From Parcubacteria group bacterium (lineage in GTDB: Bacteria; Patescibacteriota; Minisyncoccia; UBA6257; UBA11618), in assembly GCA_943357895.1 (NCBI GenBank), contig CALRGO010000004.1:1-44190 (forward strand): 44,190 nt of DNA. Direction: 5' to 3'. The stretch's first letter is position 1; each line of letters opens with the position of its first letter. This document shows positions 3,843 to 38,872 of this stretch, piece by piece. The position numbers were made by a program, and so were the translations under genes. The notes beneath the pieces were generated by a model. The model did no database searches and was not told the origin of the DNA. It saw only the letters and a program-made list of their open reading frames with translations.

Positions 3843-4949
3843 ATGGAACACCGTTATAAGGTGTGGCTGGAAGTGAGTGAGGCCAGCGTGCGGAAGAATA
3901 TCCGTACGTTCCGCGGGCTTTTGGATACAAAGACGCAGTTGTACGCGGTGGTTAAGTCTAATGCATACGGCCATGGGCTTTTGCAGTTTTCGGAAATGGC
4001 GGACAGGGTTAGCGTGGACGGTTTTTGCGTGGACTCCGTCGTAGAGGGCGTAAAGCTTCGCACGCACGGTATTACGAAGCCGATTCTGGTATTGGGCTAC
4101 ACGTTGCCGGCGCTCTATGCTGTGGCGGCGAAGAATAGTATTACGGTTACTATTTCTAATAACGAAGCTCTTGTGGCATGGAGTAAGGCGAAAGCTAAGC
4201 CGCAGTTCCATATAAAGATCGATACCGGCATGCACCGACAGGGTTTTCAGTTAGAGGGCTTACCCGTGGTTATTAAAAAACTTACGAAGTCTGACGTTAA
4301 AAAATATTTCGTCGGCGTATATACCCACTTCGCGATGGCGAAGAATCGCGACGATAAAGCGTTTACGCAGAAGCAGCTCGGAGTATTTAAAGAAGTATGC
4401 CCGATTTTCGAGAAAGCTGGTTTTAATAATCTCGTCCGTCACGCATCGGCCACAGGCGGAACACTCCTTGGTAATGAATTCCATATGGACTTGGTGCGCG
4501 TGGGCATTGGCCTCTACGGCATATGGCCATCTGCAGAACTCGAAGGTCAGTTGAGTAAAAAAATAACCCTCGTGCCGGCACTTAGTTTGCATTCCGTCAT
4601 CAGCGAAATAAAAGAAATTAAAAATGGCGAGGGCGTGGGCTACGATATGACGGAGCGCGTAGCGCATGACACGAAGCTTGCGGTAATCCCCATAGGCTAT
4701 TGGCACGGCATGCCACGCACCGCTTCGTCTGTGGGTTGCGTATGGATCGGTAAAAATAAGGCGAAGATACTAGGTCGCGTTTCGATGGATATGATAGTGG
4801 TGGATATCACAGGCGTTCCGTGTAAAGTCGGTGCTGAAATAGTTATTTATCCGCTTGAACTAGCTGAGAGCATCAATGCCTCTCCCTACGAAGTAATAAC
4901 CCGCATCAACCCCTTAATTCATAAAAAAATTAAAGATTTAATAAAATAA
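3843..4949 (+). CDS. alr: Alanine racemase
   Basis: 368 aa. The PLP-lysine motif AVVKSNAYGHG is present, with a C-terminal GYWHG...ILGRVSMDM pattern. Confidence 0.9.
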   Translation: MEHRYKVWLEVSEASVRKNIRTFRGLLDTKTQLYAVVKSNAYGHGLLQFSEMADRVSVDGFCVDSVVEGVKLRTHGITKPILVLGYTLPALYAVAAKNSITVTISNNEALVAWSKAKAKPQFHIKIDTGMHRQGFQLEGLPVVIKKLTKSDVKKYFVGVYTHFAMAKNRDDKAFTQKQLGVFKEVCPIFEKAGFNNLVRHASATGGTLLGNEFHMDLVRVGIGLYGIWPSAELEGQLSKKITLVPALSLHSVISEIKEIKNGEGVGYDMTERVAHDTKLAVIPIGYWHGMPRTASSVGCVWIGKNKAKILGRVSMDMIVVDITGVPCKVGAEIVIYPLELAESINASPYEVITRINPLIHKKIKDLIK

Positions 4950-4953
4950 TCCT

Positions 4954-7647
4954 ATGGCAATAATGCAACAGATTGTATGGCATACAAAAACAGTCCCCGA
5001 TGTTCTTGATGTGCTTCATTCGCGGGAGCATGGTCTGACAAAAGAAGAAGCGACCGAGCGGTTTCAAAAATATGGACGAAATTATCTTCCCGAAGGGAAG
5101 GTTGATAGTGTATTCCTTATTTTCTTCCGGCAATTTCAAAGTCCGCTGATTTATATTCTCTTTGCCGCGGCAGGTATTGTTTTTATGATGGGGTCGGCAA
5201 TTGATGCCTTGATTATTTTTATAGTACTTCTTTTTAATGCGATTCTAGGAACATTTCAGGAGGGTAAAGCACAAAACACACTTCTTGCCTTAAAAAAGTT
5301 TACCGAAACTTCCGCTACTGTATTACGCGATGGTATGGAGATTGTAATCGCAGATACCGAGGTACTGCCCGGGGATATTATTGTATTGCAAGAAGGAGAA
5401 AAAGTGCCGGCTGATGCTCGAATTATTTTTGCCAATACTCTGAAAATTGATGAGGCAAGTCTTACGGGAGAATCAGAGCCCGTGACTAAAACCGAGGCAG
5501 TGGTATTAGCCGATAATCTATCGGTTGCAGATCAGAAAAATATGGTATTCAAGGGCACGCTCATTTTGAGTGGAAACGGCAGGGCGGTTGTTGTGGCGAC
5601 AGGATTCACAACAGAGATTGGGAAAATTGCGCAGAAAATATCATCGATTGATACCGAGATTCCCCTGAAAGCTAACATCCGTTATCTCTCTAGAATTATT
5701 GTCGTTACGGTGGCTCTTATCAGTGTCTCATTGATTATTCTCGGCGTGTTTTCCGGTAAATCTCTTAGAGAGATGTTTACCACCGCAGTGGCGCTTTCGG
5801 TCTCAATAATTCCGGAGGGTTTGCCAATTGTAATGACCTTGGTTTTGGCAACGGGCGTTTTTCGAATGTCGAAGCGTAACGTGCTAGTGAAACGACTACA
5901 AGCGGTGGAGGCATTAGGGCAGACAAAAGTTATTGCTGTGGATAAAACGGGGACGCTCACCAGAAACGAGATGGTTATTCAGCGAGTGTATGTGGATGAT
6001 GCAATTTTTAGTATCACCGGTAGTGGATACGAGCCAAAGGGCGAAGTAATTTTTGATGGCAAGGTTATTGACCCCTTACATCATCCCGAGCTGCTTTTTA
6101 GTGGAAGAATTGCGGCATTCTGTGCCAACGCACGACTATCATATTTCCAAGAAACCGGTCTTTGGAAGATTATAGGTGATCCAACCGAGGCGGCGATGGT
6201 GGTGCTTTCTGAAAAAATTGGATTTCGCCACGATACTCTAGAGCAGGAAACACCGAAAGTTTTTGAATTACCGTTTGACTATCAAAAAAAGTATCGCGCT
6301 ACCATTCGAGTAGTTGATGGTAAGAACTTTCTTACTGTCGTTGGCGCGCCAGAGTCAGTACTCTTACTTTGTAAAAATATCTGGCATAAAGATGGAGTCG
6401 AGACTCTAAGTGAAGAAAAGAAAAAAGAATTAGAATCAGTTTTTCATAATCTTGCGCAAAACGGTTTTAGGGTGGTGGCGTATGCCATACATCAAGACAC
6501 CGCCCGAAGCGTTGATGGAGATGCAATACCACCGCTTACTTTTGTCGGTTTTTTTGGTATGAGTGATGCGCTCCGCGGCGAAGTTAAAGAAGCAATGCAA
6601 AGAGTACGAGTGGCGGATATGCGCGTGGTGATGATTACGGGTGATCATCGTCTTACGGCGCAGGCAATTGCCAAAGAGGCAGATATTTGGCGCGAAGGCG
6701 ACAGTGTTCTTACGGGAGAAGAAATAGACAAGATGTCTGATGAGGAGTTGACAGAGAAGCTCGCTAGCACCACAGTCTTTGCGCGAGTCACACCAGATCA
6801 CAAGCTCCGCATCATTCAGGCCTACCGCAAGCGAGGGGAGGTTGTAGCTATGACCGGAGACGGCGTGAATGATGCGCCCTCACTTGTTGCCGCTGACATT
6901 GGTGTCGCCATGGGGAAAATTGGAACAGAGGTAGCAAAGGAAGCCTCAGACATTGTGCTTTTAGATGATAACTTCGCAAGTATAGTTTCAGCGGCTGAAG
7001 AAGGTAGAAGCATTTATAAAACAATTAAGAAAGTCCTTACCTTTCTCTTTTCTACGAGCACTGGCGAGGTAATTAATATCACGGGGGCGCTTATTCTAAA
7101 ATGGCCAATCCCACTCCTTCCGTCTCAGATTATTTGGCTTAATTTTGTTACTGATGGATTTCTGTCGGTAGCACTTGCCATGGAGCCAAAAGAAAAGGGA
7201 CTGATGCAGGGAAAATTTGAGCGACCAAAGAAATGGATTGTGGACGGTTTTATGGTTAAGAGAATGCTCTTGATGGCTCCCGTAATGGGGCTTGGAACAC
7301 TGTATCTTTTCAGTCAATATTTCGAAGTAGATCTTGCGAAGGGGTGGACTATTGCTCTTACCACCATGGCTGTCTTCCAATGGTTTAATGCTTGGAATTG
7401 CAGATCCGAAAGTAAATCTATTTTCCAAATGAATCCTTTTTCTAATATGTATTTAGTGGGTGCAACTGTAATGGTTATATGTTTGCAACTTACTGCAGTT
7501 TATACGCCGTTTTTACAGAAAGTCCTTCATACTGTACCGCTCTCTTTTAATGAGTGGCTCGTTCTTACGTCTGTCGCCACTTCCGTTGTTTTTGTTGAGG
7601 AGATACGTAAATTCTTTTACCGAAGAAAATTGGTAGCATACATATAA
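4954..7647 (+). CDS. P-type cation-transporting ATPase (P2/Ca2+-type-like, E1-E2 family)
   Basis: 897 aa. It carries TGES, the PEGLP transmembrane motif, the phosphorylation site DKTGTLT, and MTGDGVNDAPSL. It is AT-richer than its neighbours. Confidence 0.9.
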   Translation: MAIMQQIVWHTKTVPDVLDVLHSREHGLTKEEATERFQKYGRNYLPEGKVDSVFLIFFRQFQSPLIYILFAAAGIVFMMGSAIDALIIFIVLLFNAILGTFQEGKAQNTLLALKKFTETSATVLRDGMEIVIADTEVLPGDIIVLQEGEKVPADARIIFANTLKIDEASLTGESEPVTKTEAVVLADNLSVADQKNMVFKGTLILSGNGRAVVVATGFTTEIGKIAQKISSIDTEIPLKANIRYLSRIIVVTVALISVSLIILGVFSGKSLREMFTTAVALSVSIIPEGLPIVMTLVLATGVFRMSKRNVLVKRLQAVEALGQTKVIAVDKTGTLTRNEMVIQRVYVDDAIFSITGSGYEPKGEVIFDGKVIDPLHHPELLFSGRIAAFCANARLSYFQETGLWKIIGDPTEAAMVVLSEKIGFRHDTLEQETPKVFELPFDYQKKYRATIRVVDGKNFLTVVGAPESVLLLCKNIWHKDGVETLSEEKKKELESVFHNLAQNGFRVVAYAIHQDTARSVDGDAIPPLTFVGFFGMSDALRGEVKEAMQRVRVADMRVVMITGDHRLTAQAIAKEADIWREGDSVLTGEEIDKMSDEELTEKLASTTVFARVTPDHKLRIIQAYRKRGEVVAMTGDGVNDAPSLVAADIGVAMGKIGTEVAKEASDIVLLDDNFASIVSAAEEGRSIYKTIKKVLTFLFSTSTGEVINITGALILKWPIPLLPSQIIWLNFVTDGFLSVALAMEPKEKGLMQGKFERPKKWIVDGFMVKRMLLMAPVMGLGTLYLFSQYFEVDLAKGWTIALTTMAVFQWFNAWNCRSESKSIFQMNPFSNMYLVGATVMVICLQLTAVYTPFLQKVLHTVPLSFNEWLVLTSVATSVVFVEEIRKFFYRRKLVAYI

Positions 7648-24333: not shown

Positions 24334-24404
24334 TGCCGGGTCGTCTAATGGTCGGACAGCGGACTTTGAATCCGTCAATCTAGGTTCGATTCCTAGCCTG
24401 GCAA
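24334..24404 (+). tRNA. tRNA-Gln (anticodon UUG)
   Basis: Hand-folded cloverleaf: acceptor TGCCGGG/CCTGGCA, anticodon stem GCGGA/TCCGT with loop CTTTGAA, T-arm CTAGG-TTCGATT-CCTAG. 71 nt, no encoded CCA. Confidence 0.9.
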
Positions 24405-24415
24405 CAAATATAAAT

Positions 24416-37417: not shown

Positions 37418-37565
37418 TTACCATGATTAAAGCTGAAGGAGGTTAGGTGTGGCAAGGGCTGTGGAGAACTTGCTATGCGCTTATAAGCTATTTTTGGTAT
37501 GCTATAAATGCATTGGTATAAATTAACAAAGGTCGCGATGCGTGAATAATCAGTATTGTAAATAT

Positions 37566-37886
37566 ATGAATTCTAAGCAAATAGGTCATTGGGTATTTTC
37601 CCTCGGCCTCGTGCTCGCGGTTGTCAGTCCTTTTGTCTTTATTCCTTATACCGGAATAATTTTATTTATTCTCGGTATTATTATCGGATACGTTAATATC
37701 AAGGGAAATGAAGGTCATTCATTTTTACTCGCGGTGATTGCGCTCGTCGTTATTGGGGTTGGTAGTATCCAGCTATTGGCGTTAACTTCGCCGGTTGTGG
37801 CGATACTCACGAATATTATCGCTTTAGCATCCCCTGCGGCGTTAGTAGTTGCGGTTAAGCAAATACTCACCACTAGTAAGGCGTAA
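37566..37886 (+). CDS. Small integral membrane protein (3-4 TM), hypothetical
   Basis: Hydrophobic throughout. ATG 37566 is preferred over the GTG at 37542 used by the ORF track. Confidence 0.5.
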   Translation: MNSKQIGHWVFSLGLVLAVVSPFVFIPYTGIILFILGIIIGYVNIKGNEGHSFLLAVIALVVIGVGSIQLLALTSPVVAILTNIIALASPAALVVAVKQILTTSKA

Positions 37887-37911
37887 GTACGGATACGAAG
37901 CGTAGTAAATG

Positions 37912-37959
37912 AAAAGAGTTCTCCGGAGGTATATCCTCAACGAGAACTCTTTTCTTTTC
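37912..37959 (+). terminator. Rho-independent terminator
   Basis: A 12-bp stem pairs AAAAGAGTTCTC with GAGAACTCTTTT, with an inner stem, followed by TCTTTTC. Confidence 0.7.
37945..37959 (+). repeat. 15-nt direct repeat AACTCTTTTCTTTTC, left copy
   Basis: Identical 15-mer at 38255-38269. The two copies bracket the tRNA-Gln(CUG) unit. Confidence 0.9.
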
Positions 37960-37967
37960 CGCATATA

Positions 37968-37996
37968 TTGATTAAAAGGCGTATTTATTGCATTAT
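37968..37996 (+). promoter_or_regulatory. Putative promoter of tRNA-Gln(CUG): TTGATT-N17-CATTAT
   Basis: Hexamers lie at 37968-37973 and 37991-37996, 15 nt upstream of the tRNA 5' end. Confidence 0.4.
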
Positions 37997-38011
37997 TATG
38001 AGCGTAATTAC

Positions 38012-38082
38012 TGCCGGATCATCTAGTGGTAGGATAGCGGACTCTGAATCCGTTCACCTTGGTTCGAATCCAAGTCCGGCAA
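38012..38082 (+). tRNA. tRNA-Gln (anticodon CUG)
   Basis: Acceptor TGCCGGA/TCCGGCA, anticodon stem GCGGA/TCCGT with loop CTCTGAA, T-arm CTTGG-TTCGAAT-CCAAG. 71 nt. Confidence 0.9.
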
Positions 38083-38100
38083 CTAAGTTTTTCATTATAA

Positions 38101-38253
38101 TGCCGGACTTGGATTCGAACCGAAAAGGGGGTCGGGGAAAAAGTTTAAGGTTTTCCCCGTGTAGGAAATTAGGCCTTTTTAGGCCGTGAGAAACCGAGGG
38201 TTTCTCAGGAGGAGGTTATTAAACCGACGACGTTCGGCTGCCAGTCCGGCAAC
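38101..38253. other. Structured element built from tRNA-Gln end sequences (candidate ncRNA or insertion scar)
   Basis: 38101-38121 is the exact reverse complement of tRNA positions 38061-38081. AGTCCGGCAAC at 38243-38253 repeats 38073-38083. A 9-bp closing stem pairs 38101-38109 with 38243-38251. Internal hairpins lie at 38133-38159, 38172-38185 and 38187-38207, followed by AGGAGGAGG at 38207-38215. Confidence 0.5.
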
Positions 38254-38254
38254 A

Positions 38255-38269
38255 AACTCTTTTCTTTTC
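38255..38269 (+). repeat. 15-nt direct repeat AACTCTTTTCTTTTC, right copy
   Basis: Identical to 37945-37959. Confidence 0.9.
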
Positions 38270-38482
38270 TTAAATACTCGTTAAATAAAGCCACTCCACT
38301 TTCTCCCGTGCCCATGGGGTTTTGCGCAAAAAGACGAGGCTGGACTGTATGCTCGGATCTTTTGTAAAACAGTTGATTGTGATGCGGCGACCGAGCTCCT
38401 CCCAGCCGTAGCGTTCTACTAAAAATTCCAATATCGCTTTAAGCGTTTTTCCGTGGAGCGGGTTATTAGGATGCTCGTTCAA
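38270..38482 (-). CDS. DUF2132 (VF530-like) small protein
   Basis: [56 protein letters not shown] matches my memory of the DUF2132 consensus. Confidence 0.6.
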
Positions 38483-38495
38483 TTGTATGCTGTTA

Positions 38496-38858
38496 CTATG
38501 CGAGTGTAATCACTAACGCCATTACGTAAAGCGATACGAAGCTTTCCGCGGCGTTGAAGGCGAATAATTTGAAGGACTTGCCTTCCCAGAGCCAGCTGCC
38601 GGCTTGGATTGGCATTACAAAGCCAAGCCATGGCCAGAACGCGAGCGTGAGTGCGAGCGTCCCCTGCGGCGCGATTTGCGATAAAACGAATGTCATTGCT
38701 TGTCATGGGGTAAGAGGTATGCTTCTCATATCTTTATCGGTAAATTTCATCATTCTGCGTCACGCTTTGCCGAATACCGGCCCGTACCATAACGCCCCCA
38801 CGGCTACGTTTGCGACTGCCGCCCCGATAACCGCCCAGTAATTTATTGTTATTTGCAT
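38496..38858 (-). pseudogene. DUF1761-like membrane protein interrupted by two in-frame TGA codons (pseudogene or TGA read as sense)
   Basis: A single frame reads MQITINYWAVIGAAVANVAVGALWYGPVFGKA-TGA-RRMMKFTDKDMRSIPLTP-TGA-QAMTFVLSQ...VITLA-TAG. The TGAs lie at 38762-38760 and 38705-38703, and there is no frameshift. Confidence 0.5.
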
Positions 38859-38872
38859 GAGGTAGGTATAGC

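Follow-up and report, generated by a model that had tools for sequence, protein, structure and literature searches.

A conserved structured element downstream of tRNA-Gln(CUG) in a Parcubacteria genome, a probable member of a tRNA-linked RNA family in Patescibacteria

We analysed a stretch of 44,190 nucleotides (hereafter the window) from a Parcubacteria group bacterium (assembly GCA_943357895.1, contig CALRGO010000004.1), in which a structured element of 153 nt lies directly behind the gene for tRNA-Gln(CUG). As judged from related loci, a family of such elements is situated directly downstream of tRNA-Gln, on the tRNA strand, in several lineages of the Patescibacteria, the candidate phyla radiation (CPR). 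On balance, we favour the view that 38101-38253 is a member of a conserved, uncatalogued family of structured RNA elements of ~120-190 nt, which would be co-transcribed with the tRNA and cut out by the tRNA-processing enzymes, analogous to the tRNA-linked repeats (TLRs) of E. coli. An earlier description made from the sequence alone (the sequence-only reading) had listed among its candidate roles a tRNA-derived non-coding RNA (ncRNA) with a closing stem like the tRNA-Gln acceptor. This is the role that we prefer, because five copies stand beside tRNA-Gln and show compensatory changes on the tRNA strand.

Results

Repeats and fold at the tRNA-Gln locus

The sequence-only reading had made four observations on repeats and structure at this locus, and all of them were confirmed as real and non-random. 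The 15-mer AACTCTTTTCTTTTC is present in two exact copies (Table 1). When up to two mismatches were allowed, three sites were found in the window against 0.09 expected, a number reached by none of 100 shuffles; the third site is the palindromic partner within the terminator stem. The last 21 nt of the tRNA (38061-38081) and the 5' arm of the element form an inverted repeat (I1) matching at 21/21 positions, with 19 nt between the arms, and it stops exactly at tRNA position 72. The direct repeat AGTCCGGCAAC has its second copy at 38243-38253 as described, and AGTCCGGCA occurs exactly three times in the window, every time at the tRNA-Gln locus. This direct repeat (D1) is longer, extending over 31 nt at 77% identity (38062-92 against 38232-62), so that 38101-38251 carries 20-nt imperfect terminal inverted repeats (I3, 80%) with perfect tips of 9 nt.

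Folding of 38095-38270 on the + strand gave the expected closing stem and the three hairpins, here called H1 (38133-59), H2 (38172-85) and H3 (38187-207), at -63.6 kcal/mol (z = -2.8). Any 5' strand able to pair with a copied tRNA 3' end must itself be an inverted repeat of that end, and thus the 21-nt inverted repeat, the 11-mer direct repeat and the 9-bp stem are one feature. The 21-bp inverted repeat does not resemble an intrinsic terminator: GAAAAGGGGG follows its 3' arm, there is no U-tract, and the terminator scan called none.

The population matching the locus is from lake water, and its relatives are found in assemblies of groundwater and lakes, a part of them from small-pore filter fractions. 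In three runs of two studies (X1 and X4, study P1; X5, study P2), independent Logan contigs cross the locus with 0-1 differences, and the layout is thus not an assembly artefact. The Logan assemblies of two further runs (X2, X3) break within the 21-nt inverted repeat (38066-38084), where the contig ends abut or overlap without an alternative continuation; a polymorphism was rejected as the explanation, and the breaks are technical. They account for the public contigs L002 and L003, which stop at the tRNA 3' end. Another assembly of the same population (L001) has at ~2783, equal to window position 38070, an A for C in the T stem (CCAAG to ACAAG). This breaks one pair and lowers the inverted repeat to 20/21; the change is either a real variant or an error in the assembly.

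Homologous copies beside tRNA-Gln

The pattern CCAAGTCCGGCA-N5-35-TGCCGGACTTGG was scanned in metagenome and genome collections, and four further loci of identical architecture were found: L017, L021 (a metagenome-assembled genome (MAG) labelled Saccharibacteria), L022 (a MAG labelled Taylorbacteria) and L023. Matches in L015, L016 and L018-L020 were palindromes without a tRNA and were discarded as unrelated. The order on the tRNA strand of the four loci is tRNA-Gln (CUG; UUG in L021), a partly palindromic spacer of 24-29 nt and UGCCGGACUUGG, followed in most copies by A(A/U)UCGAAC; next come the G-run GGGGGUC, H1, GUGNNGGA, a variable H2, H3 (UUAGAAACC-GNG-GGUUUCUAA), a variable linker, CCAAGUCCGGCA, the discriminator and C. 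The copies were matched by nhmmer at E values of 1e-21 to 1e-37. The covariance model of homologs that the sequence-only reading had proposed could be built, and the copies score 99-154 bits with it.

Over 143 kb searched, both methods recovered the five full copies together with a partial second one in L023, and neither found any other, the rest of the window included. The 44-kb window thus has one copy, and the 8 kb of L023 have 1.5. The partial copy (L023 3757-3877, - strand, 25.6 bits) lies ~500 nt downstream of the full one and comprises H3 and the 3' linker with no closing stem. It follows a 101-aa open reading frame (ORF) and a 50-aa ORF fragment, both without a family match, and an ORF ~1.1 kb beyond it gave a weak HTH_38 domain match and nothing else. 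The 50-aa fragment, which lies between the two copies, was reminiscent of the N-terminus of a transposase of the tyrosine type associated with repetitive extragenic palindromes (REP); Pfam and NCBIfam gave no match, and this identification was dropped.

The gene pyrG lies upstream in both L022 and L023, and the downstream genes are unrelated between loci; the neighbours across loci are VF530, DUF2200, a helix-turn-helix (HTH) protein and an unknown 101-aa protein. As the flanking genes differ, tRNA-Gln is the sole constant partner. No integrase or recombinase gene was found beside any of the five copies, and no ORF inside the element.

Anatomy of the element

The 3' end of the element copies the T-stem 3' strand, the acceptor 3' strand, the discriminator and the next base of the tRNA, while the 5' end consists of the acceptor 5' strand, then the T-stem complement and usually the T-loop complement. 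The two ends pair as a continuous acceptor/T-stem minihelix of 9-12 bp that closes the core of G-run, H1, H2 and H3; in the window, the 3' arm, which directly repeats the tRNA 3' end, is paired with 38101-38120. The exact copy of the tRNA 3' end measures 11 nt in the window (31 nt at 77%), 15 nt in L023 and 10 nt in L017, and 14/15 nt match in L022. The discriminator and the next base match those of the neighbouring tRNA (AAC/AAC in the window, AGC/AGC in L017, L022 and L023). The T-loop complement also follows the local tRNA, being GGATTCGAAC in the window (tRNA GTTCGAATCC) and GGAATCGAAC in L021-L023 (tRNA GTTCGATTCC); GGAUUCGAAC goes with tRNA GUUCGAAUCC, and GGAAUCGAAC with tRNA GUUCGAUUCC. 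The 5' leader is repeated too in L023 and L022 as AATAT|TGCCGGA (twice in L023, repeat D4), and GCCA is encoded at the element 3' end in L017 and L023.

ARAGORN and Rfam called nothing at 38101-38253, and the element is not a canonical tRNA; only its acceptor strands and the stretch complementary to T stem and T loop derive from a tRNA. The 3' linker has purine-rich GGAG-type motifs that are seen again in other members, and no conserved ORF or start codon was found in it across members. L017 shows two peculiarities. A palindrome at 15-66 extends across the tRNA trailer and the element leader (GCAAAATT ... AATTTTGC), and its inverted repeat is 20 nt including the discriminator, with the T-loop complement lost.

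Table 1. Features of the tRNA-Gln(CUG) locus in the window and positions of the homologous copies.
Feature	Positions	Strand	Basis or remark
114-aa predicted membrane protein gene, upstream neighbour	37542..37886	+	ORF list
Terminator-like hairpin of the 114-aa gene	37907..37958 (arms 37907-37923 and 37942-37958)	.	inverted repeat I2, 17 nt, 94%
15-mer AACTCTTTTCTTTTC, copy 1	37945..37959	+	exact; 3' arm and T-tail of the upstream terminator
Promoter-like site before the tRNA, TTGATT-N17-CATTAT	37968..37999	+	read from sequence
tRNA-Gln(CUG)	38012..38083	+	ARAGORN; Rfam RF00005 60.9 bits, threshold 29
Spacer between tRNA and element, 17 nt	38084..38100	+	most of the 19-nt loop 38082-38100 between the inverted-repeat arms
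Conserved structured element, 153 nt, member of the tRNA-Gln-linked family	38101..38253	+	homologous copies in L017, L021, L022, L023
Element 5' arm: UGCCGGA, CUUGG (T-stem 3' strand complement), AUUCGAACC (T-loop complement)	38101..38121	+	I1, 21/21
Most conserved core: G-run GGGGGUC, H1 (38133-38141 / 38151-38159), GUGNNGGA	38127..38166	+	alignment
Hairpin H2, GGCCU-UUUU-AGGCC, variable position in the family	38172..38185	+	fold
Hairpin H3, UGAGAAACC-GAG-GGUUUCUCA, conserved	38187..38207	+	inverted repeat I14
AGGAGGAGG run, variable 3' linker	38207..38215	+	sequence
Element 3' arm: degenerate T-loop copy (GUUCGGCU), CC-AGUCCGGCA, discriminator A, C	38232..38253	+	D1, I3
15-mer AACTCTTTTCTTTTC, copy 2, lineage-specific	38255..38269	+	starts 4 nt past the closing stem, directly next to the VF530 stop codon
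VF530-family (PF09905) gene, convergent downstream neighbour	38270..38482	-	Pfam E 3e-33
Element copies in other loci	L017 55-175; L021 1355-1543; L022 6771-6923; L023 4363-4512		

Evidence for RNA structure and for the tRNA strand

The helices are kept by paired changes. By hand count, positions 5 and 8 of H1 (G-C/A-U; A-U/C-G/G-C) and positions 2, 4 and 5 of H3 changed on both sides, and in H3 all cells (100%) are paired over six sequences, with 3/9 pairs doubly changed. In a model-fitted alignment of the six sequences, 93% of the cells are paired and 9 pairs are doubly changed, which none of 500 shuffles reached; when the partners were slid by 1-3 columns as a control, 31-59% were paired and 0-3 double changes were counted. 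Wobbles occur in H3 as well: L017 and L021 have a G·U at position 3, and the partial copy of L023 has a U·G at position 2. Read on the tRNA strand, all the wobbles are G·U pairs; on the opposite strand they would be A·C. The fold energy of the tRNA strand against its complement was -54.7 against -35.6 kcal/mol in L017 and -83.0 against -61.1 kcal/mol in L021, the two most divergent copies. The H1 loop in L022 and L023 is a GGGA tetraloop of the GNRA type. From these patterns we conclude that selection acts on the RNA, or at least on the single-strand fold, of the tRNA strand.

That the element is a functionless, decaying relic, left either by partial duplication and rearrangement of a tRNA-Gln gene or by the excision of an element, seems to us very improbable. 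The ends are indeed plainly tRNA-derived, the closing stem has defects in three of the five copies, the DUF1761 gene downstream in the window is broken, and RNA contigs and 31-mers show no element expression, in data that are uninformative as the tRNAs are also missing from them. However, the same interior is recognisable from Saccharibacteria to Taylorbacteria, double substitutions maintain the helices, and a 40-nt core is kept, exactly or near-exactly, across environments, while independent scars would share no interior. The scar of a tRNA-targeting integrative element, another candidate of the sequence-only reading, is disfavoured on the same observations, since the copies are not decaying and their hairpins keep pairing through double substitutions.

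Pairing between the element and the tRNA

The 5' arm of the element can pair with the tRNA 3' half (21 bp in the window) in place of its own 3' arm. The sequence-only reading had expected that the inverted repeat would sequester the tRNA 3' half in a read-through transcript, and this was borne out by folding: the nested fold was the minimum free energy (MFE) structure of the unprocessed co-transcript in 4/4 loci where it was computable, by 19-27 kcal/mol. As the 5' arm has these two partners, the folding and processing of both RNAs are probably kinetically coupled.

It could be thought that this pairing is itself the function, and that the element is a cis-acting folding switch of the tRNA-Gln transcript. 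The tRNA 5' strand (a), the tRNA 3' half (b) and the element arms (a' and b') would then pair either as a:b and a':b' or as b:a' and a:b', and the element would gate maturation, decay (for example by an RNase III cut of the 21-bp duplex) or read-through. Besides the MFE result, this explanation is in line with the T-loop complement, which the closing stem does not need and which is kept and tracks the tRNA in four of the five copies, with the partly palindromic spacers that lengthen the hairpin, and with the U-rich tail after the closing stem in the window. On the other hand, L017 has no T-loop complement and retains the rest, and a switch would have no need for a conserved multi-hairpin core of 100 nt with an invariant 40-nt segment. 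The identical tRNA functions in close relatives without the element, the inverted repeat is not followed by a U-tract, the terminator scan was negative, and the downstream genes differ and are often convergent, so that there is nothing obvious to regulate. We therefore consider a switch improbable.

The 15-mer and the question of an insertion

Homologues of the 114-aa protein encoded upstream led to two relatives with the same gene order, L012 and L013. L012 (protein 73% identical) shares the terminator stem and the TTGATTAA promoter with the window, and its tRNA-Gln agrees at every base; between the tRNA and the unrelated gene 3' of it there are 45 nt, which hold a simple hairpin, and the element is absent. 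L013 has the same upstream layout and an identical tRNA, at which its contig ends. As the two share the tRNA, the promoter and the upstream junction with the window, the tRNA and the upstream junction are ancestral, and the element was gained or lost 3' of the tRNA.

The sequence-only reading had taken the two 15-mers as the target duplication of an insertion that carried the tRNA. This does not agree with the relatives, because with an ancestral tRNA and upstream junction the 15-mer cannot be the target duplication of a tRNA-bearing insert. The other four loci (L017, L021-L023) have no 15-mer counterpart after the element and no bracketing repeat above chance, which again speaks against such an insertion. 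The first 13/15 nt of copy 1 are common to L013, where they form the terminator stem and tail. The two copies in the window are identical at 15/15 positions while copy 1 differs from L013, and the duplication is thus younger than that split. The 15-mer is, judging from these comparisons, a separate, lineage-specific duplication of the terminator T-tail, outside the element family. We tentatively suggest that it may go back to a local event by which the element came next to its present downstream flank; recombination between the T-rich tails of terminators, or template switching between them, would be examples. Copy 2, placed behind the closing stem, possibly acts as a U-rich tail.

A comparison with relatives for an empty site had also been suggested, and it gave a mixed answer: L012 is without the element, but its downstream flank is unrelated, and no joints skipping the element were found in 8 DNA runs. 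The idea of a MITE-like element, after the miniature inverted-repeat transposable elements (MITEs), has no multi-copy support in the window, which holds no further copy.

tRNA-Gln as a site of recombination

Direct repeats of a tRNA 3' end are a classic signature of integration. Another explanation is therefore a miniature, non-autonomous integrative or mobile DNA element in a tRNA-Gln attachment site, moved in trans by a recombinase whose gene lies elsewhere, in which the direct repeats would be the left and right attachment sites (attL/attR) and the interior would hold recombinase-binding or single-strand hairpin sites. In every locus the unit lies between direct repeats of the tRNA 3' end (11-15 nt exact), its presence is patchy among close relatives, and the decayed partial second copy ~500 nt downstream in L023 is what attachment-site accretion would give. 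A 40-nt core is also identical between a lake genome and a soil sample. Moreover, the tRNA-Gln 3' end is a place of recombination in related Parcubacteria: in L026, L027 and L029, a large serine recombinase gene (Resolvase + Recombinase + Zn_ribbon_recom; 4989-6488, - strand) ends within the 3' part of tRNA-Gln(CUG) (4948-5021), and at the tRNA-Gln end of the sister contigs L025 diverges, L031 continues differently and L030 and L033 stop. The recombinase at tRNA-Gln and the diverging sister contigs show that tRNA-Gln is an integration hot spot in these bacteria.

Several results do not fit such a DNA element. A recombinase gene stands beside none of the five copies, 170-215 bp would make a very small excisable circle, and integration accounts for the direct repeat and not for the inverted copy of the tRNA end. 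The G·U compensatory changes on one strand and the GNRA loops in H1 indicate RNA rather than sites in duplex DNA. An empty-site joint was found in none of the 8 DNA runs of the population, the window has a single copy, and the viral, phage and plasmid collections gave no match. Taken together, these data make the mobile DNA element unlikely as an explanation of its own, though it is the strongest of those competing with ours. The two readings are compatible, and the element could be an RNA gene that spreads.

Distribution and database searches

A fifth to a third of the 31-mers sampled from the L023 element were present in soil, permafrost, marine sediment, freshwater and groundwater runs, and contigs from eight of these runs were examined. 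Contigs matching the core were obtained from two soil runs (X39, X40), a groundwater run (X50) and an "organism B" run (X48). No contigs were obtained from the marine-sediment run, the freshwater run and one unlabelled metagenome run, and the permafrost run gave a contig over the tRNA only. The shared part is the 40-nt core GGGAAGGGGUCGGGAAACGGGAGUUUCCCGUGUCGGAAGU (G-run, H1, GUGUCGG) in its L023 version, which one soil contig matches exactly and four distinct "organism B" contigs match with 2-5 differences. Downstream, these contigs have different H2 hairpins and then an H3-like ...UGAGAACCGAGG. Upstream, they have different 5' strands, most of which appear to start with U, and one reads as the complement of another tRNA 3' half (UGGGCGUGGGAAAUCGAAC). 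The tRNA-Gln-linked family, as traced by these matches, is thus widespread and strongly conserved in its core, yet patchy.

Rfam 15 was searched with the whole window at the gathering threshold and in three focused E-value scans (E up to 10), and only the tRNA passed; the other matches were weak, spurious miRNA-hairpin matches to the palindrome. Phage and plasmid BLAST in distant mode with the window and the L023 elements found nothing, and five pattern scans of IMG/VR viral contigs (inverted repeat; 5' arm and G-run; two H3 versions; H1 core) gave nothing. Known RNA classes were also considered and set aside. A transfer-messenger RNA (tmRNA) was called by neither ARAGORN nor Rfam, the acceptor is of the Gln type (U1-A72) and there is no tag ORF. 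The signal recognition particle (SRP) RNA, 6S RNA, RNase P, T-box, riboswitch and ribozyme readings had no model match, and the anatomy is unfit for them.

Surroundings of the locus

The tRNA-Gln(CUG) has the acceptor stem UGCCGGA/UCCGGCA with U1-A72, and its CCA is not encoded. The promoter scan gave TTAAAA-N16-TATTAT at the place of the promoter-like site, of which TTGATTAA and the AT-rich second box are kept in L012 and L013. The upstream terminator keeps its stem in these two relatives with a differing loop, and the consensus terminator scan did not call it. The same scan found no terminator in the spacer between tRNA and element.

The 114-aa upstream protein is lineage-specific and has no Pfam match. 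It has 13 homologues, most of them 71-80% identical, on small groundwater and lake contigs. RNA contigs over its gene were found in three independent metatranscriptomes with word depths of 9-57, and so the gene seems to be well expressed. Beyond the VF530 gene lies a broken DUF1761 gene (38496-38860, - strand), of which the N- and C-terminal halves both match PF08570 (E 2e-10 and 7e-9) and are split by a stop and a frame change; the DNA downstream of the element is thus decaying. The window has a second tRNA-Gln (UUG; 24334-24405, + strand), with the different acceptor UGCCGGG/CCUGGCA. It has no linked element, and a protein-coding gene lies directly 3' of it.

Discussion

Comparison with known systems

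[quoted passage not shown] Like these repeats (the tyrT-locus repeat/rtT RNA and rrA/rrB/rrF), the element lies directly downstream of its tRNA gene, presumably in the same transcription unit, on the same strand and after a spacer of 17 nt (24-29 nt in the other loci). The principle is shared and the identity is shorter, as 11-15 nt of the tRNA end are exactly repeated here against 18-19 bp in E. coli. Unlike the TLRs, to which it has no sequence or Rfam similarity (E up to 10), the element has a complementary 5' strand, with which its ends form a tRNA minihelix, and a conserved multi-hairpin core. It is also tied to tRNA-Gln and to CPR bacteria, and it occurs in single copy and not in tandem array, apart from the partial L023 copy.

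Paired ends that imitate the stacked acceptor and T stems around a non-tRNA body are also seen in the tRNA-like domain of tmRNA, the 4.5S RNA precursor and the MALAT1 mascRNA. The element differs from tmRNA-type RNAs in that its 3' side has no T arm, the G3:U70 identity of alanine is absent and there is no reading frame for a tag, and its stem is that of the neighbouring tRNA-Gln (U1-A72). The motif GGAUUCGAAC of its 5' arm may resemble the GGAUUCGAC of the tmRNA 5' region.

The attachment-site duplications that integrases leave at tRNA 3' ends, and remnants of the CIME type (cis-mobilizable elements), likewise have a direct repeat of the tRNA 3' end from the T-loop/T-stem region, with the full tRNA on one side and a partial copy on the other, and here too the same tRNA is a hot spot in relatives. 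They differ from our element, in which the interval is ~170-215 bp, no recombination gene is present, the tRNA end has an inverted copy and the interior is conserved with compensatory changes. MITEs are likewise small (~150 bp) and non-coding, with a folded interior between terminal inverted repeats, which in our element measure 20 nt at 80%. In the window, however, the 15-mers bracket the promoter, the tRNA and the element together and not the termini of the inverted repeat, so that no target duplication of the kind seen in MITEs is found; there is one copy in 44 kb, the copies of the family are always next to tRNA-Gln, and the termini are the host tRNA's own sequence. The primer-binding sites of retroviruses and long-terminal-repeat (LTR) retrotransposons have, like the element, ~20 nt exactly complementary to the 3' part of a specific tRNA. 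Here, in contrast, the complementarity ends at position 72 and leaves the discriminator and CCA uncovered, no reverse transcriptase gene is nearby, and the tRNA is encoded in cis.

A proposed pathway and the points against it

We propose that the tRNA promoter would drive transcription of tRNA-Gln and element together. From biochemical work on tRNA minihelices it is established that RNase P and the CCA-adding enzyme need no more than an acceptor/T minihelix as substrate. The minihelix at the element ends would then be a substrate for the enzymes of tRNA maturation, with RNase P acting at the 5' end and trimming and CCA addition at the 3' end, and a stable ncRNA of ~150 nt with tRNA-Gln-like ends would be released. 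The core of G-run and H1 is the likely functional surface of this RNA and would probably bind a protein.

Some of our observations weigh against this pathway. The alignable sample is small (five full copies and one partial copy), and the alignment used for the pair counts was fitted to the proposed structure. The closing stem is imperfect in three copies: that of the window is bulged, L022 has a C·C mismatch and L017 has a 2x2 loop. The preferred fold of the co-transcript unfolds the tRNA, and 19-27 kcal/mol is an odd cost for a mere passenger. The hot spot at the tRNA-Gln 3' end, described above for related Parcubacteria, belongs with these points. The RNA runs were without element 31-mers and no RNA contig covered the element, a result that is uninformative since the tRNAs are also nearly absent there. 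Finally, the presence is patchy: L012 with its identical tRNA and the pyrG-tRNA-Gln loci L025-L033 are without the element, and the searches through flanking proteins gave tRNA-Gln loci without it. Given such relatives, the element must be dispensable or mobile. Nevertheless, we regard a processed, tRNA-linked RNA as somewhat more probable than the alternatives.

A more far-reaching idea, which we consider a long shot, is that the family is a CPR-wide mimic or partner of tRNA-Gln acting in trans. An excised and CCA-tailed U1-A72 minihelix might engage a non-discriminating glutamyl-tRNA synthetase (GluRS) or the GatCAB amidotransferase; or a free 5' arm might anneal to the tRNA-Gln 3' half in the manner of a primer-binding site, so as to titrate, mark or prime it; or a self-propagating RNA gene might home to tRNA-Gln genes. 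If true, any trans-acting mimic or partner of this kind would represent a novel type of tRNA-directed RNA, found in organisms whose genomes are minimal.

Significance for the Patescibacteria

Repeats of a tRNA end beside a tRNA gene are not always the scars of integration, and some caution is suggested when they are annotated. As a tRNA-linked RNA, the element would be a second, independent case of the poorly understood principle of the tRNA-linked repeats, in which a tRNA end is borrowed for processing, with a much clearer structural logic. The Patescibacteria make up a big share of bacterial diversity and have tiny genomes, and to our knowledge almost no ncRNAs of their own have been described. 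The element family is apparently specific to uncultivated CPR bacteria and absent from Rfam, and a structured RNA kept all the way from Saccharibacteria to Parcubacteria would clearly qualify as a candidate lineage-specific ncRNA.

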